DNA of 64,000 nucleotides from Patescibacteria group bacterium (GTDB taxonomy: Bacteria; Patescibacteriota; Minisyncoccia; Phycocordibacterales; UBA12079). The stretch is taken from contig JAYEKM010000008.1 in the NCBI GenBank assembly GCA_034661035.1, forward strand, positions 11,677-75,676, read 5' to 3'. Each line of letters begins with the position of its first letter. Position 1 is the first letter of the stretch. Shown piece by piece: positions 7,825 through 34,898 of the stretch. A program made the position numbers and the translations under genes. Under the pieces are notes generated by a model, which ran no database searches, was not told the DNA's origin, and was given only the letters and a program-made list of their open reading frames with translations.

Positions 7825-8235
7825 ATGAAAATATTTATAATTTCTAGCAAGAATTTTTACGAAAAAATTCCTGAAATAAAAGAACAGTTGGAAAAAAATG
7901 GAAATATTATTTCTTTACCTAATTGTTTTGATGCCCCTGAAACTGAAGCCAAATATAGGGATTTAGGAAAAAAAGAACACTCTAAGTGGAAATCTGAGAT
8001 GATTTGTCATAGTGTAGATGTAATCAAGGATAATAATGCCGTCTTAGTCTTAAATTTAGAAAAAAATGGTATTAAAAATTACATCGGAGGAGCTACATTT
8101 CTCGAAATGTATGATGCTTTCCGCCTTGGTAAAAAAATATTTCTATATAATCCTGTCCCCGAAGGGATGCTATATGATGAGATAATTGGTTTTAATCCAA
8201 TTGTTATAAACCAAGATTTAAATTTAATTAAATGA
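7825..8235 (+). CDS. hypothetical protein (possibly nucleoside 2-deoxyribosyltransferase-like Rossmann fold)
   Basis: 136 aa; stop overlaps the tsaD start by 4 nt; the fold guess is weak. Confidence 0.4.
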   Translation: MKIFIISSKNFYEKIPEIKEQLEKNGNIISLPNCFDAPETEAKYRDLGKKEHSKWKSEMICHSVDVIKDNNAVLVLNLEKNGIKNYIGGATFLEMYDAFRLGKKIFLYNPVPEGMLYDEIIGFNPIVINQDLNLIK

Positions 8236-9476
8236 AAATATTATCAATAGAAACTAGTTGTGACGAAACTGCTATCAGTATTTTAGAAGCTGAGGGTTCT
8301 TTCGGAGACAAAAACAACCCGCCCAAATTTAAGATTTTAGCTGATAATTTAATCTCTCAAATTGATATTCACAAAGAATACGGGGGTGTCTTCCCTGCTC
8401 TTGCAAAAAGAGAACATTCCAAAAATCTTATCCCCCTCTTAGCCAAATCACTGGAAGAAGCCTCTCTGGCTGTTCCAACTAATAATTCATTTGATAAAGG
8501 ACCAATCAAAAAAATTCTAGAAAGAGAACCCGAGCTAACTAAGTTATTTTTAGAATATATTCCAACCATTAAAATTCCTGAAATAGATGCTATCGCTGTT
8601 ACCCAAGGACCAGGACTTGAACCTGCTCTATGGGTTGGAATTAATTTTGCCAAAGCCCTATCTTTAGTTTGGAATAAACCACTTATTCCAGTTAATCATA
8701 TGGAAGGGCACCTCGTCGCTTCGCTCCTCAAGTCAAAAGTCAAAAGTCAAAAGTCAAAAGTAATTAAATTTCCTGCCATTGGACTACTAATATCTGGCGG
8801 GCATACAGAACTTATATTAATAAAAAAATGGGGTCAATATGAAAAAATTGGTCAAACCTTGGACGATGCGGTAGGTGAAGCTTTTGATAAAGTAGCTAGA
8901 ATGATGGATCTGCCCTACCCTGGCGGACCAGAAATTTCTAAACTAGCTCAAACAAATAGAAACTACACTTCCGGAGGTCCGACCTCCGGAAGTGTAGAGA
9001 TTGGACCTCCACAGGTTAAATTACCAAGGCCTATGTTAAACACCAATGATTTCAATTTTTCATTTTCTGGTTTGAAAACAGCCGTCTTATATCTAATCAA
9101 AAATCTAAAAAAAGAAAACAGTTGGGAAGAATTACCGATCGAAGTCAAACAAAAAATTGCACTTGAATTTGAAGACGCTGTGATTGAAATTTTGCTTAAA
9201 AAAACCAGGACTGCGATTGAAAAATATAATGCTAAAACATTAATCTTAGGAGGTGGTGTTGTTGCTAACTCTCAAATCCGCCAAACCTTCCAATCACTTG
9301 GAGGTCCAACCTCCAAGTTAGAAGTTTCGATGCCAGAAATAGAATTTTCAACCGATAATGCTGTGATGATTGGCATTGCTGGTTATTTTAGATATCTTCA
9401 GCAAAAAGAAAAAGGTCAGTTGCAAACTGCAACCGACCTTCTTGAACTCCCAGCTGATGGAAATTTAGAGTTCTAG
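8232..9476 (+). CDS. tsaD: tRNA N6-adenosine threonylcarbamoyltransferase TsaD (Kae1/YgjD)
   Basis: N-terminal SIETSCDETAISIL and metal-binding H..H region; carries unusual in-frame repeat insertions. Confidence 0.9.
   Translation: MKILSIETSCDETAISILEAEGSFGDKNNPPKFKILADNLISQIDIHKEYGGVFPALAKREHSKNLIPLLAKSLEEASLAVPTNNSFDKGPIKKILEREPELTKLFLEYIPTIKIPEIDAIAVTQGPGLEPALWVGINFAKALSLVWNKPLIPVNHMEGHLVASLLKSKVKSQKSKVIKFPAIGLLISGGHTELILIKKWGQYEKIGQTLDDAVGEAFDKVARMMDLPYPGGPEISKLAQTNRNYTSGGPTSGSVEIGPPQVKLPRPMLNTNDFNFSFSGLKTAVLYLIKNLKKENSWEELPIEVKQKIALEFEDAVIEILLKKTRTAIEKYNAKTLILGGGVVANSQIRQTFQSLGGPTSKLEVSMPEIEFSTDNAVMIGIAGYFRYLQQKEKGQLQTATDLLELPADGNLEF
8730..8762 (+). repeat. heptanucleotide tandem repeat (AAGTCAA)x4.7 inside tsaD
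   Basis: aagtcaa aagtcaa aagtcaa aagtcaa aagta encodes KSKVKSQKSKV. Confidence 0.9.
8963..8997. repeat. 35-bp perfect GC-rich palindrome inside the tsaD coding sequence
   Basis: CTACACTTCCGGAGGTC-C-GACCTCCGGAAGTGTAG encodes ..TSGGPTSGSV.. Confidence 0.9.
9297..9317. repeat. 21-bp perfect palindrome inside tsaD, same core as 8963
   Basis: CTTGGAGGTCCAACCTCCAAG encodes LGGPTSK; core GGAGGTCCRACCTCC. Confidence 0.9.
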
Positions 9477-16779: not shown

Positions 16780-19161
16780 TCAAATAACTATATTAAAAAT
16801 CTTGTTTTTTATATAAATACTCTTTTTAACCTCTTGACCGTCCAACCACTTTTGAACCCGTAAATCTGAGAGGACTTTGTCTTTTACCTCCTTCTCGGAA
16901 TCCTCGTCCCTAACCTCAATTTCAGCCCTTACTTTACCGTTTATTTGAACAGCTACTGTGTAAAGATCATCCTTAGCTAGCTTCTCGTCATAGGCTGGCC
17001 ACTTTTCCAGATGGATAGAAGAATCATGACCTAGGCTATTCCAAATCTCTTCTGTTATGTGAGGTGTAAATGGTGATAATATCCTCAAAAACTTTTCAAA
17101 ATCTTTTTGAGAGATCTGAGAAGTTTTTACCACCTTCATGAATTTCATCATTTCAGAAACAGCCGTATTATATTTCAATCCATTGATATCATTTCCAACT
17201 TTTCTGATAGTCTTATGTAAAACGTTCTGAACTTCTTGAGAAGTCGTTTCTTCTAATTTTTCTCTTTGATAAAAAACTTTTTCCAAAAACCGATAGACTC
17301 CAACAATATTATCTTCATTCCACATTACTTCATCCTCCAAAGGTGTTGCAAAAAGTATGTAAGTTCTAACCGAGTCTGCACCAAATCTTTCTACCATCTC
17401 ATTAGGATTCACTACATTCCCTTTTGACTTAGACATTTTCTTCCCTTCTCCATCTAGAATCATCCCTTGATGTCTTAATTTCAAAAAAGGTTCATTGAAA
17501 TCTAACAATCCAATTTTGTTCATCGCTTTAACAAAAAATCGTGAAAATAAAAGATGCATATAAGTATGTTCTGCTCCACCAATATACAAATCAACCGGCA
17601 ACCATTTTTTACGATCTTCCGAACAAAATTCTCTTTCATTATGAACATCAGGATATCTCAAAAAATACCATGACGAATCTACAAAAGTATCCATCGTATC
17701 AAACTCTGGTGTCCAACCTTTCCCAAAAATTTTTTCTGTCCTCTCTCTCAATTCTTTTGATTTTTCTAGAGGTGATTTTCCTGATGGAATAAAGTCAACG
17801 TCGGTTGGCAATAACCAAGGTAAGTGTTCTTCTGGAATTAATTTAGCTTCTCCTTCTGGTGAATAAACAATTGGAATTGGGCAACCCCAATACCTTTGAC
17901 GAGACATAGACCAATCCCTAAGGCGATAATTAGAAGTCGATTCTCCTTCTACAAATTCTGTAATTTTTTGTTTAGCTTCTTCAGAAGTCATTCCATCAAA
18001 TTGAGTAGAGTTTACCAAAACTCCATCACCAGAATAAGATTCTTCTTTTATATCTCCACCAGAGATAACTTCTCTTATATCCAAACCAAATTTGGTAGCA
18101 AATTCAAAATCTCTTTCATCATGAGCGGGGACAGCCATGATTGCCCCAGTTCCATAACCACTTAAAACATAATCAGCAATAAAAATAGGGATTTCTTCTT
18201 TATTAGCTGGATTAGTAGCAAAAATTCCCTCTAACTTTACTCCTGTTTTATCTTTAGCTTCAATTCTATCCATTTCAGTCTTACTCTGAGCTTCTTTGAT
18301 GTATTTTTCTACTTCTTCCCAATTCTCAACTTTTTCTTTTAAATCTTGAACTAATTGGTGCTCAGGAGCCAATACCATATAAGTCGCTCCGAATAATGTA
18401 TCTGGGCGAGTAGTAAATACCTCTATTTCTTTTTCAACTTTAGACTTTGGACTTTGGACTTTAAAGACTATTTTTGCCCCTTCTGACTTTCCAATCCAAT
18501 TTTTTTGATTTTTTTTCGTATGTTCTGGCCAATCAACAATATCTAAATCATTAATCAGGTCGTCAGCAAATTCTGTAATCTTAAAAAACCAACTTGGAAT
18601 TTCTTTTTGAACAATTTGAGTTCCGCAACGCTCACATTCCCCACCTACTACTTGTTCATTAGCAATACCAGTCTGGCAAGATTCACACCAATTAATTTTA
18701 GAAGTTTTTTTATAAACTAAATCATTTTCAAAAAATTTAATAAACAACCATTGTGTCCACTTATAATATTCTGGTTCATAAGTAACTACTTTTTCATCAA
18801 AATCATATCGTAAACCTAAAAGCTTCATTTGCTTTATATAATTATCAATATTTTTAGCTGTGCTGATCTCAGGGGCAATCCCTGTTTTAATTGCATAGTT
18901 TTCAGCCGGCAAACCAAAAGCATCAAAGCCTTGTGGATGCAAAACATTAAAACCTTGCATGGTCTTAAAACGGGTAAACACGTCACTGGCTGTATAAGAT
19001 TCAGTATGCCCCATATGAAGACCATCTCCTGATGGATAAGGAAACATATCCAACATATAAAATTTTTTCTTAGTATTGTCCTTATCTATATTAACAACTT
19101 GGTTGTCTTCCCAAATCTTTTGCCATTTTTTCTCTATTTTTTTATGGTTATACTTTTCCAT
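16780..19161 (-). CDS. leuS: leucyl-tRNA synthetase
   Basis: MFPYPSGDGLHMGH (HIGH), KMSKSKGNV and the LeuRS-specific GFDAFGLPAE. Confidence 0.95.
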   Translation of the reverse strand: MEKYNHKKIEKKWQKIWEDNQVVNIDKDNTKKKFYMLDMFPYPSGDGLHMGHTESYTASDVFTRFKTMQGFNVLHPQGFDAFGLPAENYAIKTGIAPEISTAKNIDNYIKQMKLLGLRYDFDEKVVTYEPEYYKWTQWLFIKFFENDLVYKKTSKINWCESCQTGIANEQVVGGECERCGTQIVQKEIPSWFFKITEFADDLINDLDIVDWPEHTKKNQKNWIGKSEGAKIVFKVQSPKSKVEKEIEVFTTRPDTLFGATYMVLAPEHQLVQDLKEKVENWEEVEKYIKEAQSKTEMDRIEAKDKTGVKLEGIFATNPANKEEIPIFIADYVLSGYGTGAIMAVPAHDERDFEFATKFGLDIREVISGGDIKEESYSGDGVLVNSTQFDGMTSEEAKQKITEFVEGESTSNYRLRDWSMSRQRYWGCPIPIVYSPEGEAKLIPEEHLPWLLPTDVDFIPSGKSPLEKSKELRERTEKIFGKGWTPEFDTMDTFVDSSWYFLRYPDVHNEREFCSEDRKKWLPVDLYIGGAEHTYMHLLFSRFFVKAMNKIGLLDFNEPFLKLRHQGMILDGEGKKMSKSKGNVVNPNEMVERFGADSVRTYILFATPLEDEVMWNEDNIVGVYRFLEKVFYQREKLEETTSQEVQNVLHKTIRKVGNDINGLKYNTAVSEMMKFMKVVKTSQISQKDFEKFLRILSPFTPHITEEIWNSLGHDSSIHLEKWPAYDEKLAKDDLYTVAVQINGKVRAEIEVRDEDSEKEVKDKVLSDLRVQKWLDGQEVKKSIYIKNKIFNIVI
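18438..18465 (-). repeat. heptanucleotide tandem repeat (AAAGTCC/AAAGTCT) inside leuS
   Basis: + strand ctttaga ctttgga ctttgga ctttaaa; on the coding strand it encodes FKVQSPKSKVE. Same unit family as the tsaD repeat. Confidence 0.85.
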
Positions 19162-23973: not shown

Positions 23974-25554
23974 GTGGATAACTACCCGTATTGTTTTTTT
24001 GGATTCAAACAGTTATTCTATATAGCAATGAGAAATACCAAAGAGCTTATATCCTTGTTAGATTCCCCTGATAAAGAAGATCAGAAGATGATCATCAAGG
24101 CTTATGATTTTGCCCAAAAAGCTCACTCAAAACAACTACGTTATTCGGGAGAACCTTACTTTGTCCATTCTTACGAGACAGGGAAAAATTTAGCCTTATT
24201 AGGCATGGGAGCTATTGTCGTTACAGCTGGCTTATTACACGATGTCATAGAAGACGCTGATGTCAGTGAGGATGAAATTGAAAAAGAATTTGGAGAAGAG
24301 ATTCTCTTTCTAATCCAAGGAGTTACCAAGTTGGGTAAAATACGTTTCCGAGGACTAAAAAGACATGCTGAAAGTTTAAGAAAATTATTTGTAGCTTCTT
24401 CTCAAGATATTCGAGTAATCATAATTAAGTTAGCTGACCGTATCCATAATATGGAAACTCTTAAATATGTCCCCGAAGAAAAACAACTTCGTATCGCAAC
24501 CGAAACCCTAGAAATTTTTGCTCCTCTTGCCTACCGTCTAGGTATGGGAATCCTAAACAGACAGCTAGAAGATTTGTCTTTTCCGTTTGTTTATCCTAAA
24601 GAACATACAAGAGTACAGGAGATAATGAAGGAAAAAAATAATGAAGATATTGAACTATTAAAAAAAGTTAGTCAAACTATTATAAAAAGATTAGCTAAGG
24701 AAGGTATCACTAATATTAAAACTAGTTACAGAAAGAAAGGTTCTTATAGTTTATACAAAAAACTTGAAAGAAAAAGTTGGGATGTGAATAAAATCTACGA
24801 TATTTTTGCCTTGAGAATTATTGTTCCCACTGTTAACGACTGTTACAAAGCCCTTGGAATTATCCACGGATTTAGAAGACCGATGCCTGGCAGAATAAAA
24901 GATTACATTGCTTTTTCAAAACCAAATGGTTATCAAAGTATTCATACAACAATTTTCACAAGATTTGGAAATGTTGTAGAGATCCAATTAAGAACTGCTG
25001 AGATGCACGAAAAAGCTGAATATGGAATTGCTTCACATCTATCATACAAGACCAAGAAAATTGGGAATGGGTCAGGTTCATCTCACAATATTTGGATCAA
25101 AAGACTTTTGCCGAATATTAATAAATTAAATAAAAATGGGGGCGACAAAAAAAATGGGGGTTCTGCCGATATCCCTGTTTGGATTAAAAAACTAGCTGAT
25201 AGTCCAAATAACATCCATTCTAAAGAATTTGTAGAAGAGTTAAAAAAAGATTTCTTTGAACATAGAATCTTTATTTTTACCCCTAAAGGGGATGTAATTG
25301 ATTTACCGACTGATTCTAGTCCAATTGATTTTGCTTATGCCATTCACTCTGATATTGGTAACCACATGTCTGAAGCAAAAGTCCATGGCAAATTAGTTTC
25401 TTTAGATACTAAACTACAAAACGGAGATATTGTAGAAATAACAACAAAAAAAGGAAACTCCCCTACCCGTAAATGGTTAAACATGGTAAGAACAACCGAC
25501 GCCAAAAGACATATCAAATCATCTTTAAAAAAACGAGAGGAAGTTAAAAATTAA
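23974..25554 (+). CDS. rel: bifunctional (p)ppGpp synthetase/hydrolase Rel/SpoT homologue (short form, no ACT domain)
   Basis: HD domain LLHDVIEDA, synthetase RIKDYIAFSKPNGYQSIHTTI and a TGS domain. True start may be ATG 24028. Confidence 0.85.
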   Translation: MDNYPYCFFGFKQLFYIAMRNTKELISLLDSPDKEDQKMIIKAYDFAQKAHSKQLRYSGEPYFVHSYETGKNLALLGMGAIVVTAGLLHDVIEDADVSEDEIEKEFGEEILFLIQGVTKLGKIRFRGLKRHAESLRKLFVASSQDIRVIIIKLADRIHNMETLKYVPEEKQLRIATETLEIFAPLAYRLGMGILNRQLEDLSFPFVYPKEHTRVQEIMKEKNNEDIELLKKVSQTIIKRLAKEGITNIKTSYRKKGSYSLYKKLERKSWDVNKIYDIFALRIIVPTVNDCYKALGIIHGFRRPMPGRIKDYIAFSKPNGYQSIHTTIFTRFGNVVEIQLRTAEMHEKAEYGIASHLSYKTKKIGNGSGSSHNIWIKRLLPNINKLNKNGGDKKNGGSADIPVWIKKLADSPNNIHSKEFVEELKKDFFEHRIFIFTPKGDVIDLPTDSSPIDFAYAIHSDIGNHMSEAKVHGKLVSLDTKLQNGDIVEITTKKGNSPTRKWLNMVRTTDAKRHIKSSLKKREEVKN

Positions 25555-25588
25555 AAACCGTGAGGAATTACCCTCACGGTTTTTAATT
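25553..25588. terminator. bidirectional terminator
   Basis: AAAACCGTGAGG-AATTA-CCCTCACGGTTTTT. Confidence 0.7.
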
Positions 25589-25595
25589 TTTAACT

Positions 25596-26222
25596 TTATT
25601 CTTTATCGAAAATTTTTTCAGGATTTTCTAACTTAATTCTTTTGTGATTCTCATAAGTTTCTTTCTTGTCCTTTTCTACTAATTTCAAAACTTTTTCAAC
25701 TAATCTTTTAGGATCAGAATCAAAAACAATATTATCATTTGGCCGATGAGCTTTTTCAATAATAAGTTGGATAATCTCATCTGTGGCCCAATCCCCTTCT
25801 AAAATACCCATTGGTTTTTCATCTTCAAAAGCAATGGTAAATTCGTGGATAGTTCCAACTCTTCCAGCAGAAATAAAAACTGCATCTACTGATTTGGTCA
25901 AAATCAAATCCCTCCCTGGATAACCAAAACCTGTATAAACAATCAAATCCATATACTCGGTCGGTAATTTGTAAGAATGTAAATGTTCATCCTCTGTGTC
26001 AGCAGGTGAGAACCCAATAGACATTCCCCCTTCATTTTTTGCCCCCTTAGCTGCCCACAAAGGCAAGCCTGTAGTAGCTCCTGTAACTAGAATACCTCCT
26101 TGTCTAATAATTTCTTTACCTAATTCTTCTGTCTTTACAACAGCATCTGGAGTTAAATGAGTTGTATCTGCTGAACCAGAGACACAAAGTTTAGGTTTCA
26201 AAAACATTCCTTTATCGTCCAT
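25596..26222 (-). CDS. LOG/TIGR00725-family Rossmann-fold protein
   Basis: VSGSADT..ILVTGATTGLP..ISAGRVGTIHEF pattern. Confidence 0.5.
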   Translation of the reverse strand: MDDKGMFLKPKLCVSGSADTTHLTPDAVVKTEELGKEIIRQGGILVTGATTGLPLWAAKGAKNEGGMSIGFSPADTEDEHLHSYKLPTEYMDLIVYTGFGYPGRDLILTKSVDAVFISAGRVGTIHEFTIAFEDEKPMGILEGDWATDEIIQLIIEKAHRPNDNIVFDSDPKRLVEKVLKLVEKDKKETYENHKRIKLENPEKIFDKE

Positions 26223-26258
26223 AATATTTTTCTTATGAGCAAAGCGAATTAGAAAAAT

Positions 26259-26279
26259 ATTACCCTGTTAAATCAAATT
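26259..26279 (-). promoter_or_regulatory. copy of the conserved TTTAACAGGGTAAT motif upstream of the LOG-like gene
   Basis: attACCCTGTTAAATcaaatt, about 35 nt upstream of the start. Confidence 0.4.
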
Positions 26280-26388
26280 TTGTAAAAATTTGATTCATTT
26301 GAGTTTTAAAAACTCAAATGATATTTAATATGGGTTATTCCAAAAAACTACTAAGCTCCTATTTATAATCTATAATTAAATTTAAGTT

Positions 26389-26431
26389 AAAAGTCTATAA
26401 AGGCCAACGTCTATAAAGTCTTTATAAAACC
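26389..26431. repeat. IVS-like repeat arm (left), overlaps the 3' end of the four-helix-bundle gene
   Basis: aaaaGTCTATAAAGgccaacGTCTATAAAGTCtttataaaacc; supplies codons IKTL and the TAG stop. Confidence 0.6.
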
Positions 26432-26755
26432 TGATAATAATTTCGATATTTCAATCGATAAACTAAAACATTTTTCAAACTGTTCTTTAGATAAATACTT
26501 TAGCTCTAAAGCTAAATAAAGCATCGATCTTACCTCTCCACAGGAACCTTTTGCTATAAATAAAAAATGCTTAAACTCTCTATCCCCCTTCCTCTCAAAT
26601 CCTTCTGCAATATTGTTCATTACTGAAACAGAAGCTCTCTGAATCTGGTCTCTAAAGCTATAGTCCTTAGAATCTGAAAAACTTTTGTAGATACTGATCG
26701 TTAGGGTTCTTGCTTTCTGCCATGATATCATATCTTCAAATTTTTCAATTTTCAT
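26411..26755 (-). CDS. four-helix-bundle protein (23S rRNA intervening-sequence protein family)
   Basis: MKIEKFEDMISWQKARTL..NNIAEGFERKGDREFKHFLFIAKGSCGEVRSMLYLALEL pattern; start trimmed to Met26 of the track ORF. Confidence 0.75.
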   Translation of the reverse strand: MKIEKFEDMISWQKARTLTISIYKSFSDSKDYSFRDQIQRASVSVMNNIAEGFERKGDREFKHFLFIAKGSCGEVRSMLYLALELKYLSKEQFEKCFSLSIEISKLLSGFIKTL

Positions 26756-26800
26756 ACTTTTTACTTTATAGACTTTATGAACTTTCGACTGTAACATCCA
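26756..26800. repeat. IVS-like repeat arm (right), inverted relative to 26389
   Basis: tactttttACTTTATAGACTTTATGAACTTTCGACtgtaac. Confidence 0.6.
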
Positions 26801-27227
26801 TTTTATCAAGTTTACCTTTTTCTGCAACAAAAGACTTATCCTTCCTCAATTTTAAAAGAATGAAATAAGCCAGCAACCAACCCAACATATCCATTAAAAT
26901 ATCCAGACTAGTGTCTAAGTTAAAGTTAGATTGATAAATTGAAGCCTTTGCTAAATATTCAAAAATTTCCCACAAAATACCTACTGTTATTACAAAAAAT
27001 AAGGATGTATAGAATATAGAAAGTTTTTCTTTAATTCTTCTAAAATATTTCGATAGAAAAAAAATATAATAAGAAAGCAAAGCCACCCAAAAACCACCAA
27101 GAAAGTGCATAATTATGTCAAACCACCAAAATTTCCAATATAGGAAAAAGTGGCTAGCAAGAATATTTAAAATAAAGATTATATAAATAAAAACAACCAG
27201 AAAAATTGAAAAAGTTTTTTTGCTCAT
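26775..27227 (-). CDS. hypothetical small membrane protein (about 150 aa, 4 TM)
   Basis: Start trimmed to MSKKTFSIFLVV; the conserved 5' module sits directly upstream. Confidence 0.5.
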   Translation of the reverse strand: MSKKTFSIFLVVFIYIIFILNILASHFFLYWKFWWFDIIMHFLGGFWVALLSYYIFFLSKYFRRIKEKLSIFYTSLFFVITVGILWEIFEYLAKASIYQSNFNLDTSLDILMDMLGWLLAYFILLKLRKDKSFVAEKGKLDKMDVTVESS

Positions 27228-27252
27228 ATTTACCCTGTTAAATAAGATTTGA
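27228..27252 (-). promoter_or_regulatory. conserved 5' UTR/promoter module abutting the start codon of the membrane gene
   Basis: Minus strand reads TCAAATCTTATTTAACAGGGTAAAT-ATG. Confidence 0.5.
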
Positions 27253-27433
27253 TTCTTTTTTTTAATAAGTACCTCTTCATAATGTGTTTTTAAATTACTG
27301 AACAAACTTTCCTTTTACCGCAACCATCAAATCTTAACTTTAAATTTTTTATATAATATAATTTATATAAAACTTTTTATCCTTAGCTGATTATAGCATA
27401 TATACATAGAACATTTTCCGCAAGATTTAAAGT

Positions 27434-27450
27434 TATTTAATAGGGTGAAT
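27434..27450 (+). promoter_or_regulatory. copy of the TTATTTAATAGGGTGAAT motif (plus orientation)
   Basis: About 205 bp from the inverted copy at 27228; second divergent pair. Confidence 0.4.
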
Positions 27451-27472
27451 TATATCACACGGTCAAATAGAA

Positions 27473-27503
27473 ATAAAAAAAAGACCTTTCCGAGGAAAGG
27501 TCC
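27473..27503 (-). terminator. hairpin with T-run on the minus strand (terminator of an unannotated minus-strand transcript?)
   Basis: aaaaaaaa-GACCTTTCC-GAG-GGAAAGGTC, with a GC-rich stretch gagtgggagtctgcggtggcgtggccg to its right. Confidence 0.4.
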
Positions 27504-27714
27504 TAAGGAGAAAAAGAGTGGGAGTCTGCGGTGGCGTGGCCGATGATGTGAAATAACGTAAACTTCTCAAAACTTTTTCGTCCTAAAAATGAACAACTTG
27601 TCTACTATTAGTATAGCAAGGAAACTTAAAAATGCAAGGAAAATTGGATTTAATCTTTAAAAAAGTGGCAAAAATATAAAAAATCAGCTAAGATTAAGAT
27701 TGTTAAATTAAATT

Positions 27715-28542
27715 ATGAACAACCTAAGAACAACAGTAATAAAACCTAAAAAGACTATCAGTTGGGATGACCTTAGAGAAATTTGGAAATATAAAGAATT
27801 ACTTTATTTTTTCACTTGGCGAGACATTAAGGTGAGATATAAGCAAACTGCCATCGGTATTCTCTGGGCCCTTTTCCAACCTTTTATGACAATGGTAGTT
27901 TTTAGTATTTTCTTTGGTGGATTAGCTAAAATGCCTTCCGATGGTATTCCTTATCCAATTTTTGTTTACACCGGACTATTGCTTTGGCAATTCTTTTCAG
28001 GAGCTTTATCAGACACGAGTAATTGTTTAATCAACAATAAAAGTGTCATCACAAAGGTTTACTTCCCACGTCTGCTACTACCGATTTCATCAACCATTAC
28101 AAAATTTGTTGATTTTGGGATAGCTTCTACAATTTTGGTAGGAATGATGATTTACTATCAATACATACCAAACTTAATAGGATTATTAATTTTACCTTTA
28201 CTTCTTCTTATTACTTTTATGGCGTCAGTGGGAGGAGGTTTATTTCTAGCCTCCATTAATGTTAAATATCGTGATGTCCGTTACGCTCTACCTTTTTTCA
28301 TATCAATGATGATGTTCGTCACTCCTGTAATTTATCCAGCTAGTATTGCCGGTAAATACTCTTGGATTTTAGCGCTAAACCCCATGACAGGTGTAATTAA
28401 AGCAGCTAGGGCAGCTATTTTAGGCAATGCCCCCATTAACTGGACCTTATTACTCATCTCTGGAGTAACTTGTCTCATAATACTAATTATTGGTTTTATT
28501 TTCTTCAAAAAAACCGAGAGATACTTCGCAGATATAGTATAA
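27715..28542 (+). CDS. ABC-2 type polysaccharide/teichoic-acid exporter permease (Wzm/TagG-like)
   Basis: 6-TM ABC-2 permease; the N-terminal WRDIKVRYKQTAIGILWALFQP motif is typical of Wzm/KpsM/TagG. Confidence 0.75.
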   Translation: MNNLRTTVIKPKKTISWDDLREIWKYKELLYFFTWRDIKVRYKQTAIGILWALFQPFMTMVVFSIFFGGLAKMPSDGIPYPIFVYTGLLLWQFFSGALSDTSNCLINNKSVITKVYFPRLLLPISSTITKFVDFGIASTILVGMMIYYQYIPNLIGLLILPLLLLITFMASVGGGLFLASINVKYRDVRYALPFFISMMMFVTPVIYPASIAGKYSWILALNPMTGVIKAARAAILGNAPINWTLLLISGVTCLIILIIGFIFFKKTERYFADIV

Positions 28543-28544
28543 AA

Positions 28545-28660
28545 GAGTAAAAAGTCTATAAAGTCCTTAAAGTAGAAAGTAAAAAAAATGGGAAATTGAC
28601 TTCGCCAATTTCCAATTTTTTTACTTTATAGACTTTCGACTTTATAAACTTTCGGCTCTT
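28545..28660. repeat. ORF-less IVS-like palindromic element with a central bidirectional terminator
   Basis: Arms aaaaGTCTATAAAGTCCTTAAAGTAGAAAGT / ACTTTATAGACTTTCGACTTTATAAACTTTCGG; centre A8-GGAAATTG-ACTTCGC-CAATTTCC-T7. Confidence 0.65.
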
Positions 28661-31600
28661 CTTTATAAGCTCTTAAATATAAAACCGGTATCATTACTAG
28701 TGTAACCACAGTCGCAAAAGACAAACCAAAGATAATTGAAAAAGCTAGAGGACCCCAAACAGAGGAAGCAAGAATTAGAGGAGTCATTCCTATAACTGTG
28801 GTTAAAGTGGTAAGGAGCACTGGCCTCAAACGAAGAACTGAAGATTCTATAACGATATCCTTAAGAGGAAGTTCTCTTTTCTCTTTTCTCATGGAGTTCA
28901 TTGTGTCAATTAAGATAATTGCATTATTGACAACAATTCCTGCCAGAGCTATCACACCGATAAAAGAAGGGAAAGAAAAAGTGCTCCCTATTATAGTTAA
29001 TCCAACCAAAACACCAATCAAAGACATCAAGACACCCGCCACTATAAAGAAAGTTTGTCTGAAAGAGTTAAATTGTAATATCAAAACAACAATAACCAAG
29101 ATTAGCCCAGCCACCAAAGCCATCAGCATTTCAGTAAAGGTCTTAGCAATATCTTCATTTTCACCTCCTGTTTTTAACAAAACACCCTCAGGAAGGAAAG
29201 TCTCGTCATCTTTTATAATGGATTGGAATTCTTTATTAATTTCAACAGCATTAGCTCCCTCTTTTAATTGAGATGAAGCGGTAGCAATCCGATCCCCTTC
29301 TTCATGGTTGATAGAAGCATTACTTTTTTGAATTGTCACATCCATCAACGAGCCTAAAAGAATTACTCCATTAGGGGTATTAATTTCCATCTGCCTAATA
29401 GAATCAACTGTAGTCCTTGAAGTTAAATTTGGATCAACATTATCTATATTAAGATTTAGTTTGACCAAAACATCAATATCTTCACCACCTGCTTTTATGG
29501 TGGTTGCGTCTACCCCATAAATAGCTGTCCTTAAAATTGAAGCAACTATTACTGGCGATAAATTACTTTCTGATAATTTAGACCTATCTATTTTCAAAAC
29601 AAATTCTGTAACATTATTTTTCATACTATTGGTTACATCGATTGTTCCAGGAATATTTTTCAAAATATCTTCGGCTTTAACAACAACTCTTTCCAAATCA
29701 TCCAAGTCAGCCCCGAAAAATTTTATTAAAACAGGAGCTCCTGAAGGAGGACCCGAACCAGGCTGAGCAACAGTCACTTTGGCTATTCTAATATCTGCTA
29801 ATTCAAACCTTAAATCTTCTATCAATTCTAGACTGTTTTTTTCTCTATCCTTCTTCAATAGAACAGTGATATTCCCTAACTTTTCGCCAGAACTACTACC
29901 AGAATTACTAAAAGCATTTGAGGAACCAACTGACGTAGCAAATGATTCAATATAAGATTGGTTATATAAAATTTCTTCCACTGCTCTGACAGCCAAATCA
30001 GTTTCTTCTAGAACCGTTCCCTGCAACATTTCTACATCAACATAAATAAACTTAGAATCTTCTGGGGGGAACAAGGAGGTTTTAAGCAAGCCAGTAATTG
30101 GTAAAGAGAAAGAAAGAATTAAAGCAATCACCATCGACCACAAAAATCTTTTTTGAAACTTCTTACTACCTAAAATATATTCTAATTTCTTTTTATACCA
30201 ACCTCTTAATAATTCATTATATTTCTTTTGTTTCTGAAATAATTTACTATTACTATTTCCGTTCCTTTTTAAGACTACTAAAGCAATTAAAGGAACAATA
30301 CCTAAAGCTACAAAAAGTGAAGCAAATAAAACAAAAATTAATGTATAGGGAATTCCCTTAACAAATTCGCCCATAATGCCAGACAAAAAGAATAAAGGAA
30401 AAAAGGCTGCCACTGTAGTCAACGTTCCAGAAGTTAAGGGTATATAAAATTCTTTAATAGTTTTAATAGCTGATTCGTTACCACTCAGTCCTTGTTTAAT
30501 TTTGACGTGCATAGCTTCAGTTACCACAATAGCGGAATCCACCAAAATTCCTACTGCCAAAATCAGAGCAAATAAAGAAATAAAATTAAGAGTGTTACCT
30601 GTAAAATACAAACCTGTAAAAGAAACCAAGAACGAAAGAGGGACTGCTAAACCAGCAATTAAAGATTCTCTCCAACCAATAGCAAAAAATAAGATTAGTG
30701 TAACTAAGAAAACAGTAGCTAATCCCGACATAGATAAATTTCTTAAGTCATCGTTTAAATACTCGGCCATATCGATTGAAATCAATACCTCAGCCCCTTC
30801 CAAAATACCACCTTCCTGCAGTCTAGCTAATTCTTTCTTAACACTTTTTACAATAGTACTGATATCACTCCCCCTCTTCTTAAAGATAGACAATGAAACA
30901 GCTTGCTGAGAAGGTTGCCCATTGACACTAACTCTAGAAAATGAAGATTTTTGACTAACTCCGTCAGAGATAAAAGCCAGATCTCTAACATAAATAATCT
31001 CCCCCCCGATACTTGAAATAGGGATATCTTTAATCTCATTTGAATCAACAAGATCCCCTTTAAATTTTAAAGGATACTTGATTCCTTGTATCTCTATGTC
31101 TCCTATTGGTAAAGAAGAATTAGCTTTAGAGATTGCATTAACAATATCTGTAATTCCTAAACCAAATTTAGAAAGAGCTGATTGGTTTACAACCACCTGA
31201 ACTTCCCTGTCTGAAATTCCACTAATACCTATTTTAGAAACACCATTAACAGACTTTAATTCATCTTTGACGTCTTCGGATAATTTAATAAATTCAGTTA
31301 CCGGTAAATCACTGGAAATAGATAGCATCAGAATAGGTTGATCGGCAAAATTTATATCTGAAATAACTGGGTCTTTAGCTTCACTAGGTAATTCTGATTT
31401 AACTTTATCAACTTCATCTTTTACTTTTTGAATAGATTCCTGGATATCAGCGTCAGCATCAAATTCAACTACTACTGAAGAAAACCCCTCTCCTGAGGTA
31501 GAGGTAATCTTATTTAATGTATCCAAATTGTTAATTAATTGATCTTCTATTTTATCGGTTATCAATCTTTCTGTGTCTAAAGCTGAGGACCCTGGTAAAA

Positions 31601-31751
31601 ATGTAGAAACAATAGCTAAAGGAATTTGTATTTCAGGAGAAGATTCTTTTGTGATATTAACTAAAGAAAAAATCCCTGCCATAATTAAGGAAGAAACTAA
31701 CAATATAGTAAAACTTTTTTTCTTTATAAAAAATATCCAGAAATTTTGCAT
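28626..31751 (-). CDS. RND efflux transporter permease (AcrB/HAE-like)
   Basis: 1041 aa, 12-TM RND architecture, AcrB-like N-terminal pattern. The last codons KVYKVESL-stop lie in the repeat arm. Confidence 0.8.
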   Translation of the reverse strand: MQNFWIFFIKKKSFTILLVSSLIMAGIFSLVNITKESSPEIQIPLAIVSTFLPGSSALDTERLITDKIEDQLINNLDTLNKITSTSGEGFSSVVVEFDADADIQESIQKVKDEVDKVKSELPSEAKDPVISDINFADQPILMLSISSDLPVTEFIKLSEDVKDELKSVNGVSKIGISGISDREVQVVVNQSALSKFGLGITDIVNAISKANSSLPIGDIEIQGIKYPLKFKGDLVDSNEIKDIPISSIGGEIIYVRDLAFISDGVSQKSSFSRVSVNGQPSQQAVSLSIFKKRGSDISTIVKSVKKELARLQEGGILEGAEVLISIDMAEYLNDDLRNLSMSGLATVFLVTLILFFAIGWRESLIAGLAVPLSFLVSFTGLYFTGNTLNFISLFALILAVGILVDSAIVVTEAMHVKIKQGLSGNESAIKTIKEFYIPLTSGTLTTVAAFFPLFFLSGIMGEFVKGIPYTLIFVLFASLFVALGIVPLIALVVLKRNGNSNSKLFQKQKKYNELLRGWYKKKLEYILGSKKFQKRFLWSMVIALILSFSLPITGLLKTSLFPPEDSKFIYVDVEMLQGTVLEETDLAVRAVEEILYNQSYIESFATSVGSSNAFSNSGSSSGEKLGNITVLLKKDREKNSLELIEDLRFELADIRIAKVTVAQPGSGPPSGAPVLIKFFGADLDDLERVVVKAEDILKNIPGTIDVTNSMKNNVTEFVLKIDRSKLSESNLSPVIVASILRTAIYGVDATTIKAGGEDIDVLVKLNLNIDNVDPNLTSRTTVDSIRQMEINTPNGVILLGSLMDVTIQKSNASINHEEGDRIATASSQLKEGANAVEINKEFQSIIKDDETFLPEGVLLKTGGENEDIAKTFTEMLMALVAGLILVIVVLILQFNSFRQTFFIVAGVLMSLIGVLVGLTIIGSTFSFPSFIGVIALAGIVVNNAIILIDTMNSMRKEKRELPLKDIVIESSVLRLRPVLLTTLTTVIGMTPLILASSVWGPLAFSIIFGLSFATVVTLVMIPVLYLRAYKEEPKVYKVESL

Positions 31752-31860
31752 AATAATTGTTTAGTCTAAAGTCCTTAATATCCATAAAGCCGAAAGTGAA
31801 AAATTTGCTTTGCAAATTTTTCTTACCTTATGGGCTTTTGACTTCATAGACTTTCGACTA
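31752..31860. repeat. second ORF-less IVS-like palindromic element between the RND and MFP genes
   Basis: Arms tAGTCTAAAGTCCTTAATATCCATAAAGCCGAAAGTG / GACTTCATAGACTTTCGACT; centre AAATTTGC-TTT-GCAAATTT. Confidence 0.6.
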
Positions 31861-33460
31861 TTTGTCCTTCTTTCAATCCTCTCGCATCTATAACAATTTC
31901 CATATCAGCTGTGACACCTTCTTTTATAATTATTTTTTCTCCTAAGATAGGACCTAAAATTACAGGATGAGAAATCAATTTATTTCCTTCACCCACTGTA
32001 AAAACGGTTGTGTCAGCAGATCCAATCTTTAGAGCTGAAATCGGAACAGAAAGTTCTGTTAATTCTTCTTCAACTTCTTGAAAAATTCTTTCAACCAACA
32101 AAGAAACTGACTGTCCATTAGTCAAAACCATATCTGAATCTTTTAAGGTAACCTCCACTTTTATCTTTTTTGTTTTGTTGTCTATGGCAGGAGCGATATT
32201 TTTAACTTCTCCTTGCCATTTAGAACCAACTAAAACCTTAGAACCAACTTCAACATCATCTCTATCTTCTTCTGTAATATAGGTAACTACCTCTAAAGAT
32301 TTATTATTGGCAATACTTACTACAGGAGTAAAAGCTGAAACAAAATCACCCTTTTCTAAATTAAGGATATTAATAGTTCCACTAATAGAGGCTCTAATAA
32401 TTGTTTTCTCTAAATTAGCGTAAGCTGATTGCAGACCTGCTTCAGCTTGTTTTAATTGAGCTTCTGCTGAGATAACGTCTTCTGATCTCCCCCCTGTTTG
32501 AGCCTGTTCATAATTCAACTCAGCAATTTCAAAGTTTGAGTAAGCCCCATTCAAACTATTCTTAGCTGTAGACAAAGCTGTTGCAGATGTGTTGATCACA
32601 GTTCTGGTTGTACTTATATTAGTTTTCCATGTAGTGATAGTTGTTTCTGATAAGTTTGAAGTCGGAGTTAGGATATTTACAGCCAAAGCTAATTTATCAA
32701 GAAAAACTCTAATGGAATTAATATTTGACTTTCTTTTATCCAATTCCCCTATTAAATCATCTTCTACATCAAATGTAGTTAGTGTATCTGACCACTCCTC
32801 TAACATTTCTTCTAAAAGCAATCTTCTCCACTCAAGATCAATTTCTAATTGAGAATCAACCACAGGGAAAATTACTTGTGGATCATCTCCTCGGGCGTCT
32901 CTAAACATAGCGTCCATTTTATTTCTAATAGAGTCATCAGCTTTAGCAAAAGAATCGTTCAAAGTGTTAACAACTGATATTTTGGTTTCAGTTAAAGTAT
33001 TTTGAACATTATCTAGAGTGGTTTTAAGAATAGAAGTCTGTTCATCTCTACCTCCTTTTTTTATCTTATCTAAACCTGCTTGAGCAACTTCAACACTGGC
33101 CTCTGCTTGAGTCACAGCTGATTTTTGTGTCCAATTGTCTAATTCACCAATAATTTGATTAGACCAAACAGTATCGCCTAATTTTTTGTAAACCCCAATT
33201 ACTTCTCCTGATATTTGAGAATAAATATTAGCAGAAGATTGTGACTGAACTTTTCCTAATAAAGGCAATGGATCTTTATTCAAAGAAAGATTCCTAACTG
33301 ACATAGTAGCAACTTGTCTAACATCAGAAGAATCAATATCTTGATCCCCATTTTCCTGAACAACCAATCTCTGATAAAAGATAATTGTTAAAATAGCTAA
33401 AATAGTGAAAACTATAATAACTTTATTACGACCTAACCCTTTATTTCTTAAATCTAACAT
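31844..33460 (-). CDS. RND efflux periplasmic adaptor (membrane fusion protein, HlyD/AcrA family)
   Basis: N-terminal TM, long coiled-coil, C-terminal beta-barrel-like region. Start trimmed to ATG 33460; the longer ORF would translate the GC palindrome. Confidence 0.65.
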   Translation of the reverse strand: MLDLRNKGLGRNKVIIVFTILAILTIIFYQRLVVQENGDQDIDSSDVRQVATMSVRNLSLNKDPLPLLGKVQSQSSANIYSQISGEVIGVYKKLGDTVWSNQIIGELDNWTQKSAVTQAEASVEVAQAGLDKIKKGGRDEQTSILKTTLDNVQNTLTETKISVVNTLNDSFAKADDSIRNKMDAMFRDARGDDPQVIFPVVDSQLEIDLEWRRLLLEEMLEEWSDTLTTFDVEDDLIGELDKRKSNINSIRVFLDKLALAVNILTPTSNLSETTITTWKTNISTTRTVINTSATALSTAKNSLNGAYSNFEIAELNYEQAQTGGRSEDVISAEAQLKQAEAGLQSAYANLEKTIIRASISGTINILNLEKGDFVSAFTPVVSIANNKSLEVVTYITEEDRDDVEVGSKVLVGSKWQGEVKNIAPAIDNKTKKIKVEVTLKDSDMVLTNGQSVSLLVERIFQEVEEELTELSVPISALKIGSADTTVFTVGEGNKLISHPVILGPILGEKIIIKEGVTADMEIVIDARGLKEGQIVESL

Positions 33461-33475
33461 ATTTTTCTTGTTCGC

Positions 33476-33495
33476 CCTGCCTGCCGGCAGGCAGG
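33476..33495. promoter_or_regulatory. 20-bp perfect GC-rich palindrome 16 nt upstream of the MFP start (candidate operator or 5' hairpin)
   Basis: CCTGCCTGCCGGCAGGCAGG with outer TTCGCCC/GGGCGAA; about 80% GC in a roughly 30% GC genome. Confidence 0.45.
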
Positions 33496-33608
33496 CTTGG
33501 GCGAAATTATATCTACCTTGCAAAAATTACTGGGGTATTATACCAAAAATAAGTGAAAAAGATAGATTTTCTCCTAAAAAATGGTAAAATAACACTTACA
33601 TAAACAAT

Positions 33609-34898
33609 ATGTCTGATCCAAGAGAACCGATGATTTCGGTTAAAAACATCTCTAAAAAGTATAAAATAACCCATCAACAGGGTGGTTATATTGCTATGCG
33701 AGATGTCATGGCAAATATAGCTAAAAAACCCTTTTCTTTCTTAAAAAGAAAGGTTAATAAGATTACAGGAAGAACAACCAGAGAAGACTTTTGGGCCTTA
33801 GAAGACATTAATTTTGATATTTTTAAAGGGGAAGCTGTAGGGATTATTGGTGCAAACGGAGCAGGCAAATCTACCCTTTTAAAAATCTTAACGGGTATTA
33901 CCCCACCCACCACAGGAGAAATAAAGATGTACGGAAAAGTTGCCTCTCTCCTAGAAGTTGGAACGGGATTCCATGGAGAGCTTACAGGAAGAGAAAATAT
34001 TTTTTTAAACGGGGCCATCCTTGGAATGACCAAGGAAGAGATAGCTGAAAAATTTGATGCTATTGTAAGATTTTCTGGTGTTAAAAAATTCATTGATACA
34101 CCTGTTAAAAGATATTCGTCAGGAATGTTAGTCCGTCTAGGTTTCTCGGTCGCAGCTCATATGGAGCCAGATATTCTTTTAGTTGATGAAGTCCTCGCTG
34201 TCGGTGATGCGGAGTTTCAAAAGAAATGCCTTGGTAAGATGGACGAGGTCACCAAAGAAGGAGGTCGTACTATTCTCTTTGTCAGCCATAATATGGCAGC
34301 TATCCAAAATCTCTGCAAAAGGTGTATTCTAATTGAAGAAGGTAAAATTAAAATGATTGGTAAGACAAAAGATGTTATTGATAGATATTTAAAATCTGAA
34401 ATACAAGACAATCCTCAAATTAAGTTTAAACCTGATTTAAATAAAAAAGCTCAAATCTTAGGAATAAAAATGAGGAACGAGAAGAACGAAATAATCAATC
34501 AAATTAATTATCAGGAACATTTTGAAATTGAATTACTAACGGATATCAGAGTTAAAAATAAAACTTATTATATTATAATCATAATTTACAACTCTGTTGG
34601 AAATATAATATTAACAACCACTGATAGAGATTTAGAACAATCTTTTATCAGTCAAATAGACAAAGTTAATAAAGAAAATAAACATTTAATCAGATTTCCA
34701 AATAAATTACTAAAACCAGGACAATATTATATCTCAATAAATTTAACTAGTGATAATCAAGGCGCTATAGACAAGCATAGTTCAGTGCTAAGTTTTAATA
34801 TTATAGACACCATATCTAAAAGATCTAAAGATAATGGTTACCGAGATACTGCTATTGTTGCTCCAGAAATAAACTGGATTTCCAAGGTAGAAAAATAA
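33609..34898 (+). CDS. polysaccharide/teichoic-acid export ABC ATPase (Wzt/TagH/KpsT-like) with a C-terminal substrate-binding-type domain
   Basis: Walker A GANGAGKST, signature YSSGMLVRLGF, Walker B ILLVDE; about 180-aa C-terminal extension. Confidence 0.8.
   Translation: MSDPREPMISVKNISKKYKITHQQGGYIAMRDVMANIAKKPFSFLKRKVNKITGRTTREDFWALEDINFDIFKGEAVGIIGANGAGKSTLLKILTGITPPTTGEIKMYGKVASLLEVGTGFHGELTGRENIFLNGAILGMTKEEIAEKFDAIVRFSGVKKFIDTPVKRYSSGMLVRLGFSVAAHMEPDILLVDEVLAVGDAEFQKKCLGKMDEVTKEGGRTILFVSHNMAAIQNLCKRCILIEEGKIKMIGKTKDVIDRYLKSEIQDNPQIKFKPDLNKKAQILGIKMRNEKNEIINQINYQEHFEIELLTDIRVKNKTYYIIIIIYNSVGNIILTTTDRDLEQSFISQIDKVNKENKHLIRFPNKLLKPGQYYISINLTSDNQGAIDKHSSVLSFNIIDTISKRSKDNGYRDTAIVAPEINWISKVEK

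Follow-up and report, generated by a model that had tools for sequence, protein, structure and literature searches.

We analyzed a 64-kb stretch of DNA from a member of the Patescibacteria (contig JAYEKM010000008.1; hereafter, the window), in which three palindromic elements, E1, E2, and E3, are built from the same kinds of short sequence module. E1 encloses a gene for a 114-aa four-helix-bundle (4HB) protein of the family PF05635/TIGR02436, the type encoded in intervening sequences (IVSs) of 23S ribosomal RNA (rRNA), and E2 and E3 contain no open reading frame (ORF). No rRNA gene occurs within the 64 kb, and the three elements are found instead at the ends of protein-coding genes. We consider it probable, though by no means settled, that E1, E2, and E3 are members of a single, widely distributed family, made up of selfish hairpin cassettes that come and go among genomes, with the rRNA IVSs as its long-known special case. 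An earlier note on this DNA had described a 4HB gene of the 23S-IVS type between inverted arms, with two ORF-less palindromes bracketing a gene for an RND pump; all of these are present, at or within a few bases of where it placed them. The G+C content of the window is 31%, and its proteins find their best matches in metagenome-assembled genomes (MAGs) of Patescibacteria.

The 4HB gene (26411–26755, − strand) occupies the loop of E1, between a 5′ arm at 26756–26789 (−) and a 3′ arm at 26386–26419 (−). The 5′ arm consists of four tandem modules, GTCGAAAGT TCATAAAGT CTATAAAGT AAAAAGT, and is followed immediately by the ATG of the 4HB gene; its first modules encode the final VESS and the TAA stop of the upstream gene, which specifies a DUF2238-like membrane protein (26775–27229, −). 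The 3′ arm, ACTTTATAGACGTTGGCCTTTATAGACTTTTAAC, can be read as the modules ACTTTATAGAC GTTGGC CTTTATAGAC TTTTAAC, the first of which supplies the codons T-L-stop (TAG) of the 4HB gene, and the same IKTL*-within-arm arrangement is found at five other loci (L033, L041, L108, L116, and L121). When the 425 nt of E1 are folded, both the minimum free energy (MFE) and the centroid structures are closed by the arms. Together with the paired arms of relatives described below, this upholds the comparison drawn in the earlier note with rRNA IVSs, in which a long stem likewise carries an ORF in its loop.

The family membership proposed for the encoded protein is borne out by sequence profiles and by predicted structure. 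The protein aligns with all of PF05635 (profile positions 1–106 of 106) at 121.3 bits (cut-off 33.8, E 2.6e-35) and with TIGR02436 at 112.2 bits (cut-off 24). An AF2 model built from 28 homologs comprises four helices (pLDDT 95.6), for which the best Foldseek matches in the PDB are 2gsc (Xcc0516) and 2rld (BT_0352), at TM 0.78–0.90 and rmsd 1.3–3.1 Å (mostly 1.3–2.0 Å); both are matched at the profile level as well, and both entries contain five chains. The next structural match is Avd of the diversity-generating retroelements (DGRs; 4dwl, 8ub*), at TM 0.75–0.79, with weak profile similarity (PHROG Avd, E 1e-4) and a score of 16.7 bits against the cut-off of 80 for the Avd equivalog NF033474. 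No nuclease-, recombinase-, or transposase-like profile matches the 4HB protein; PF05635 and, weakly, Avd are the only ones that do. An exact look-up of the 114-aa protein returned no record because NCBI annotates a 128-aa form (P0241), which starts at an ATG upstream of the 5′ arm and translates through the arm.

E2 (about 28543–28660, −) fills the gap between two convergent genes, a wzm-type ABC-2 permease gene (27715–28542, +), the stop codon of which ends at 28542, and the RND pump gene (28626–31751, −), whose stop and final 11 or so codons are part of E2. Its 57-nt arms are 74% complementary with 14 nt between them, and the element folds as a single long hairpin (−48.1 kcal/mol, z −9.7). 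At its center lies the hairpin GGAAATTGGCGAAGTCAATTTCC (28591–28613, both strands), with A8 and T7 on either side as read on the + strand; the bidirectional terminator that had been proposed here is matched by the terminator scan on both strands, as a consensus match only. E3 (about 31763–31859, −) occupies the spacer between the RND gene and a membrane-fusion (HlyD-type) gene of the same operon (31844–33460, −). Its degenerate arms surround GAAAAATTTGCAAAGCAAATTTTTC, and it too folds as a single long hairpin (−36.1 kcal/mol, z −6.3), the center of which the scan did not report as a terminator. The first modules of E3 encode the VESL and TGA stop of the fusion gene, and the element ends 12 nt before the RND ATG. 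E2 and E3 are each about 100–118 nt long, and the stems in the window are about 25–45 bp with bulges, a length that would suffice for RNase III. The sense strand folds better than the antisense strand for both, which is a matter of two cases only. The loop hairpin of E2 is found again between module arms at an unrelated locus (L025), as is that of E3, GAAAAATTTGCWWWGCAAATTTTTC, at L025 and L090, which indicates that the ORF-less copies are families in their own right.

The arms of these elements are tandem arrays of 7- and 9-nt modules (GTCGAAAGT, YYATAAAGT) with the consensus AGTC-N3-4-AA; an arm holds 3–12 such modules and has a median length of about 50–60 nt. The core 13-mer, AAGTCTATAAAGT, has 16 matches in the window at up to two mismatches, compared with 5.7 ± 2.6 in shuffled sequence, where 0 of 100 shuffles reach 16, and every match with at most one mismatch falls within an element or at a fourth site, 56520–56556. 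GTCGAAAGT itself occurs four times on the − strand, each time in an element, and not once on the + strand. All three elements share one orientation, that of the − strand, on which the 4HB, RND, and membrane-fusion genes are encoded. Their modules also encode three C-termini: TVESS* of the DUF2238-like protein, KVYKVESL* of the RND protein, and IVESL* of the membrane-fusion protein. Stop codons stand in two of the three frames of the 5′ modules, where the upstream gene ends, and the 3′ modules contain an ATG (..ACTTTATGRACT) that is often the start codon of the downstream gene. No complete palindrome falls inside an ORF; spacers between co-directional, convergent, or divergent genes hold them all, and only single arms or arrays are coding.

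Besides the three palindromes, the window contains solo arrays. The fourth site (56520–56556, −) is an arm-type array, AAAGTTCATAAAGTCCATAAAGTCGAAAGT, read in frame as KVHKVHKVES inside a gene for a GT4 glycosyltransferase. A fresh in-frame insertion is ruled out for this array, which occupies a variable linker: orthologs have a linker of equal length, and only some of them, in patchy fashion, carry the motif. According to the annotation of an identical contig, two NYN-domain genes (55373–55900 and 57153–57683, −) lie on either side of this glycosyltransferase gene. Two further arrays stand in sense orientation within essential genes, CAAAAGT repeated four times in TsaD (8735–8761, +), read KSKVKSQKSKV, and a fourfold AAAGTC-type array in LeuRS (18436–18462, −), read KVQSPKSKV; these may be decayed arms or independent slippage products.

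The arrangement seen in E1 is conserved at loci that were chosen without regard to arms. We fetched 80 metagenome loci by 4HB protein similarity alone (61–77% identity), which avoids selection on the arms, and counted those in which three or more A[AG]AGT modules lie in the 110 nt before the gene and those in which three or more ACT[CT]T modules follow it. Such modules stand upstream at 58 loci, downstream at 65, and on both sides at 52, in the orientation that forms a hairpin; modules in the opposite orientation were counted at 3 and 1 loci only. The arms are matched to each other as pairs: an element's own arms pair at −41.1 kcal/mol, compared with −34.1 kcal/mol for arms swapped between elements (p 3e-6), and the true partner is the best of 16 in 14 of 76 cases. 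The earlier note had named two results that would overturn it, a gene from outside the family, or arms missing from 23S rRNA and the rest of the genome and not kept as pairs; both were put to the test, and neither goes against its reading. At several of the remaining loci the modules are different and yet the arms complementary (GGGAAAAG with CTTTTACC in L147, GTACCGAG with CTCGGTAC in L193, and likewise L202).

Placement at these loci is equally regular. The neighboring genes are co-directional with the 4HB gene in 54 of 59 cases upstream and 56 of 66 downstream. Median distances are +1 nt from the 5′ arm start to the stop codon of the upstream gene (57% of these stops fall within the arm), 11 nt from the 5′ arm to the 4HB ATG, and 5 nt from the 3′ arm to the first in-frame ATG of the downstream gene (45% of these fall within that arm). 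The junction of wzm and wzt genes illustrates this use of the arms. In L041 the site is empty and reads TAA-TTTAAT-ATG; in L124, L134, L135, and L204 it is filled; there wzm stops at the TAG within the terminal TAGTY, and wzt starts at the ATG that the last module provides (ACTTTATGRACT). L204 carries two 4HB cassettes 5 kb apart in one polysaccharide operon, with 82% identical DNA. PF05635 genes have also been seen wedged among cas genes, for example between cmr3 and cmr2, where their presence was unexplained (PMC3936711), and these occurrences fit the picture of a cassette at cistron junctions.

The family extends well beyond this genome. A scan for the pattern GTCGAAAGTYYATAAAGT, with one genome per species, gave at least 120 loci; among the matches listed, 89 of 120 have arrays of at least four modules and 38 of 120 have an inverted array within 200 nt, a count that rules out the possibility that nearly all pattern loci are complete palindromes. 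The hosts among the matches listed include Patescibacteria, Saccharibacteria, Bacteroidales (among them the cultured Butyricimonas and Odoribacter), some Gammaproteobacteria MAGs, and others. The protein family alone comprises at least 7,943 clusters matching at E ≤ 1e-10. Among arm pairs at genome loci, loop lengths fall into two classes, 3–123 nt and 342–446 nt, the latter the size of a 4HB ORF, with one outlier of 728 nt, and the 4HB gene is the sole ORF regularly found between these arms. The earlier note had suggested that the unit behaves as a mobile element outside rRNA in this genome; the mobile behavior is consistent with the coming and going of E1–E3 described below, and the restriction to this genome does not stand, as the family crosses phyla. 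Searches of Rfam found no family for E1–E3 at the gathering score or at E ≤ 5 and none for the Bacteroidales copies, a protein-pattern scan of IMG/VR yielded no confirmed viral relative, and PADLOC gave no match to a defense-system profile.

Copies without an ORF in the cultured Butyricimonas and Odoribacter (L069, about 4395–4640; L029; and L064, about 2237–2363) share a loop of about 70 nt (CACGGGUGUCCUUCGGA...hairpin...AGCGCCCCGCAGGGGUC) for which Rfam has no match, and the two strands of the L064 copy fold unequally (−68 vs −48 kcal/mol). This loop could be a structured RNA cargo. At L012 (3892–4242), the 4HB gene is broken after 14 codons and the arm arrays are intact, and we read this locus as a decaying ORF-bearing copy, such as should exist if ORF-less forms originate by loss.

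The same modules occur in 23S rRNA genes, which two of the pattern loci among the matches listed contain, L073 and L057, both from other Patescibacteria (the 23S rRNA gene belonging to the window's own genome lies outside the window). In L073, an ORF-less palindrome with the window's modules, GTCGAAAGTCCATAAAGTCGAAAGTCCATAAAGT...CTTTATAGACTTGATAGACTTTTAGCTTTTGAC, sits in the apical loop of 23S helix 25 (positions 573–594 of the large-subunit model). In L057, a 338-nt insertion in another hairpin of the 23S 5′ domain holds two arm pairs. Helices 9, 25, and 45 are the classical IVS sites of 23S rRNA (PMC4990558). A survey of rRNA genes in the candidate phyla radiation (CPR) reported many short ORF-less insertions at known IVS sites and a few 23S_rRNA_IVP ORFs, and neither characterized the insertions nor considered sites outside rRNA (PMC11270868). 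Not one of the 4HB genes at the 80 protein-chosen loci lies in a 23S-matching region (16S was not searched); at one of these loci, L127, a 23S fragment lies more than 1 kb away on the opposite strand. Because no protein-chosen copy lies in such a region, the rRNA IVS is probably the special case of a wider family of hairpin elements, and the derivation of these elements from an IVS that the earlier note had proposed probably runs in the reverse direction.

Comparison with three syntenic relatives, L121 (RND protein 94% identical to that of the window), L122 (85%), and L041, reveals presence/absence variation for all three copies. The window, L121, and L041 all carry E1; L122 lacks it, and there the stop codon of the membrane gene runs directly into the sequence that follows E1 in the window. 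E2 is absent from L121, in which an unrelated plain terminator hairpin occupies its site; in L122, a 5′ arm array begins at the RND stop codon and a PemK toxin gene follows. L121 has E3 in a form with a truncated 3′ arm, and L122 has no E3. The arm-encoded tail is visible in the protein as well: the RND protein of the window ends in ...LRAYKEEPKVYKVESL, its closest homologs in ...LRYIK or ...RYTK, and the 11-aa tail is an extension relative to 17 of the 18 closest homologs listed, the remaining one (P0003) having an unrelated longer tail.

Two observations on these relatives stand apart from gain and loss. The PemK-family toxin gene of L122 (5201–5935) lies on the opposite strand between the 5′ arm array and a degenerate 3′ arm, which implies that arms can bracket cargo other than the 4HB gene. 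The block of RND and membrane-fusion genes is located between wzm and wzt in the window (28543–33608), L121, and L122; in L041 (29–7366), it adjoins the SLOG gene, and wzm and wzt are 6 nt apart. The relocation breakpoints of the block coincide with hairpin-bearing spacers. E2 as the agent of the relocation is unsupported, since L121 has the same junction without the element.

With these observations, we propose how a selfish cassette of this kind might persist. It consists of two inverted module arms around either the 114-aa 4HB gene or a short hairpin only, and E2 and E3 would be non-autonomous relatives of the ORF-bearing E1. Its niche would be the places that tolerate an added stem-loop, namely the junctions of cistrons, the space where convergent genes meet, and rRNA helices at their apical loops. 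Having no promoter of its own, it would be transcribed passively within host RNA, with the 4HB gene nearly always in sense, and its ends would be made harmless by 5′ modules rich in stops and 3′ modules with an ATG. In the RNA, the arms may pair into a stem of roughly 30–50 bp. By analogy with rRNA IVSs, RNase III would most likely cut this stem, excising the loop and separating the cistrons on either side. Another possibility is that the stem is melted by ribosomes that terminate in the 5′ arm, which would couple translation across the cassette. The 4HB protein, a homolog of the pentameric RNA-binding Avd with an Avd-like fold, may bind the nucleic acid of its own cassette and favor its persistence or spread.

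Several results weigh against this proposal. The stem of E1 is short and broken by interruptions, its core measuring 11 bp, and folding of the whole element reaches a z-score of only −1.6. Selection on the sense RNA stem alone would be expected to produce a strand asymmetry, and none is seen: 40 of the 4HB cassettes fold better in sense and 35 in antisense (p 0.27), and the corresponding counts for ORF-less copies between co-directional genes are 7 and 4. With no such asymmetry, we do not claim selection on a sense RNA stem, as an inverted repeat acting at the DNA level explains the arms equally well. No target-site duplication is seen at 81 arm pairs, where a terminal AGTY...RACT is the sole regularity; as to single-base duplications, the available filled and empty sites are too diverged to judge. 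No gene for a transposase, a reverse transcriptase, or RNase III is found in the 28 ORFs scanned, which are the eight genes around the elements (23974–34898) and twenty large ORFs in the first 24 kb. The comparison of E2 with L121 shows one intergenic hairpin replaced by another, with no clean insertion, and some junction copies, such as those between wzm and wzt, may be old and vertically inherited, not repeatedly inserted. Finally, the IVS protein of Coxiella is apparently not made in vivo (PMC4990558).

A bolder form of the selfish-cassette proposal, and one that we hold only as a long shot, is that the 4HB protein and the arms together constitute an undescribed type of autonomous mobile element that works without a transposase or homing endonuclease. 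A pentameric Avd-like protein would recognize the repeated modules of its own transcript or DNA and recruit a host polymerase, reverse transcriptase, ligase, or RNase III, and the hairpin would be copied into exposed loops and cistron junctions. ORF-less copies would then be mobilized in trans, and rRNA IVSs would be insertions into rRNA.

Among the rival explanations, the likeliest is that the palindromes are RNA punctuation beneficial to the host, comparable to the repetitive extragenic palindromes (REP) and their composite BIME form, and are kept by selection, the 4HB gene being an occasional passenger. E2 would then act in termination, E3 would set the expression ratio of the fusion and pump cistrons, and the hairpins in general would shield upstream mRNA from 3′ exonucleases. 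The bidirectional terminator-like center of E2 lies exactly between convergent genes, which favors this explanation; complete palindromes keep to the space outside ORFs and abut stop and start codons, and the plain terminator that holds the E2 site in L121 suggests that the position needs a hairpin. We nevertheless regard punctuation as unlikely. Close relatives manage without E1, E2, or E3, a terminator between the fusion-protein gene and the pump gene, at E3, would be counter-productive, and the same sequence family occurs in rRNA helices, where mRNA punctuation makes no sense. Identical modules and loops at unrelated loci in distant phyla are typical of spreading elements and not of local regulators, and the tight, oriented tie to one protein gene (at 52 of the 80 loci) is left unexplained.

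A somewhat weaker contender, in our judgment a doubtful one, holds that the arms act as DNA, either as arrays of binding sites for the pentameric 4HB protein or a host protein, or as cruciform-forming repeats used by a recombinase or transposase encoded elsewhere. The flanked gene would then be a domesticated partner, as in the REPtrons, and the arms would drive copying, gene conversion, and rearrangements. Arm pairing without sense/antisense asymmetry is in keeping with this, and tandem arrays of 3–12 modules would suit a multimeric binder such as the five-chain homologs 2gsc and 2rld. The modules vary by lineage while the two arms stay matched, one gene within inverted copies accompanied by many ORF-less copies mirrors the layout of REP sequences and their RAYT genes, the gene block adjoining E2 has moved relative to L041, and arm arrays flank a PemK toxin gene in L122. 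Against these points, the 4HB protein has no recognizable nuclease or recombinase features, REP-type GTAG/CGTC tags are absent, no transposase lies nearby, and the breakpoint at E2 is present in L121 without the element. Constraints at the level of transcript and translation are also indicated by how strongly the cassettes keep to the sense orientation in operons and how exactly they employ stop and start codons. The occurrence in rRNA, the rapid turnover, the spread across phyla, and the strict sense orientation make both the punctuation and the DNA explanations less consistent with the data than the selfish-cassette proposal. That the repeats are a low-complexity coincidence of an AT-rich genome or unrelated terminators, with the 4HB gene between two of them by chance, is scarcely credible: the 31% G+C, the estimate that chance alone would yield some tens of matches to an 18-mer with two degenerate positions in 596 Gb, and the clear inverted partner within 200 nt at only 38 of 120 pattern loci among the matches listed would allow it, but no shuffle attains the observed motif count, 89 of the 120 listed matches lie in arrays of at least four modules, oriented arrays flank the gene on both sides at 52 of 80 loci compared with 3 and 1 in the wrong orientation, and the hairpin z-scores are −9.7 and −6.3.

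The nearest known systems are the 23S IVSs of Leptospira, Coxiella, Salmonella, Campylobacter, and others, which share with the cassettes a long stem formed by terminal inverted repeats, a loop containing either a PF05635 ORF (Leptospira, Coxiella) or a short sequence only (Salmonella type, ~100 nt), and a sporadic distribution that suggests horizontal transfer; modules such as those of the window's arms are found in helix 25 of Patescibacteria 23S rRNA (L073). In contrast to these IVSs, the copies in the window, and essentially all relatives selected by protein, are situated in operons of protein-coding genes, their arm modules double as the stop and start codons of neighboring genes, and an arm built of tandem modules is not mentioned in the literature searched. 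Excision of the IVS stem by RNase III is established for Coxiella and others (PMC4990558), and for the cassettes it would follow by analogy.

The resemblance to miniature inverted-repeat transposable elements (MITEs) is partial. The Correia/NEMIS elements of Neisseria, ERIC/IRU, and similar MITEs are ORF-less palindromes of ~100–150 bp in many copies near genes, co-transcribed as long hairpins and polymorphic in presence or absence between strains, and Correia hairpins are RNase III substrates. The size, arms, copy number, and polymorphism of the cassettes accordingly agree with the MITE-like character that the earlier note had ascribed to them, and a target-site duplication and a transposase partner are lacking. 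In Correia elements the terminal repeats are defined and a TA duplication is present, whereas no duplication is seen at the 81 arm pairs; unlike Correia and ERIC, the cassettes have arms made of a variable number of short modules and a family range that crosses phyla, and their ORF-bearing relative encodes a 4HB protein and no transposase.

REP/BIME sequences and REPtrons are similar in comprising many extragenic palindromes, with one protein gene within inverted copies and with proposed roles in termination and mRNA stabilization. REPs are G+C-rich sequences of 20–40 bp with a GTAG or CGTC tag (PMC3733652), whereas the arms of the cassettes are A+T-rich and lack these tags, and the bracketed gene is PF05635 in the cassettes and a Y1 transposase homolog (RAYT) in the REPtron. 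Rickettsia palindromic elements (RPEs) are likewise palindromic repeats that tolerate translation, as do the arm modules that form three C-termini here and the arm-like arrays in frame inside the glycosyltransferase, TsaD, and LeuRS; RPEs, however, insert whole into ORFs, and complete cassette palindromes lie outside ORFs, with only single arms or arrays coding. Avd of the DGRs shares the four-helix-bundle fold with weak profile similarity. Avd forms a pentamer and, in company with a reverse transcriptase, binds structured RNA; unlike in Avd systems, no reverse transcriptase is present in the 28 scanned ORFs (template and variable repeats were not searched for).

Other features lie close to the elements. 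Downstream of E1 is a SLOG-family gene (25596–26222, −) with a 35-nt leader, TTCTAATTCGCTTYGCTCATAAGAAAAATATTATG (26220–26254, −), that finishes in the SLOG start codon; a near-identical leader precedes both the SLOG and the RND genes in L122 (about 2115–2170 and 7845–7890), and it looks like a promoter or leader module common to several genes. A 485-nt spacer separates the DUF2238-like gene from the wzm-type gene, and within it (27481–27600, −) is a strong terminator-like hairpin (AGGACCTTTCCTCGGAAAGGTCTT followed by T8), preceded by ~100 nt of G+C-richer sequence with a weak, sub-threshold Rfam match only; this region may be a small RNA gene. Beyond the RND operon is a wzt-type ATPase gene (33609–34898, +). 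The 5′ leader of the membrane-fusion gene, ahead of its ATG at 33460, contains a G+C-rich perfect palindrome, TTCGCCCAAGCCTGCCTGCCGGCAGGCAGGGCGAA (33466–33500, −), the core of which, GCCTGCCTGCCGGCAGGCAGG, also occurs within an arm array in L002 and is read as L(L/P)AGRQ in the glycosyltransferase linker of the orthologs P0127 and P0147. Palindromes with this core may constitute a second small element that moves about in company with the arm modules.

The 4HB protein family, rRNA IVSs, MITE and REP elements of bacteria, and short insertions in CPR rRNA genes were all known before. Full-text literature searches on the arm strings and on IVS-like elements outside rRNA returned nothing relevant. 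New with respect to the literature searched are the 4HB genes outside rRNA in the same hairpin architecture, the modular arm arrays that double as stop and start codons, the ORF-less relatives with common arms and loops across genomes, and the very same modules in 23S helix 25.

For genome annotation, the arm modules extend or replace the ends of genes and create false N-terminal extensions, such as that of the 128-aa NCBI model, and they may break assemblies. A very large family annotated merely as 'four helix bundle protein' gains a concrete genetic context, that of an oriented modular-arm cassette at cistron junctions. The origin and purpose of rRNA IVSs and of their conserved ORF have been open questions since the early 1990s, and in the study of Coxiella a 'remnant of transposition' and a 'mobile element whose ORF aids mobility' were still untested ideas (PMC4990558). 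The old question can now be put to experiment, by following cutting of the stem, binding of the protein to the modules, and movement of a marked cassette, because copies exist in the cultured Bacteroidales Butyricimonas and Odoribacter. If the autonomous-element reading were true, the rRNA IVSs, unexplained since 1990–93, would be explained as insertions.

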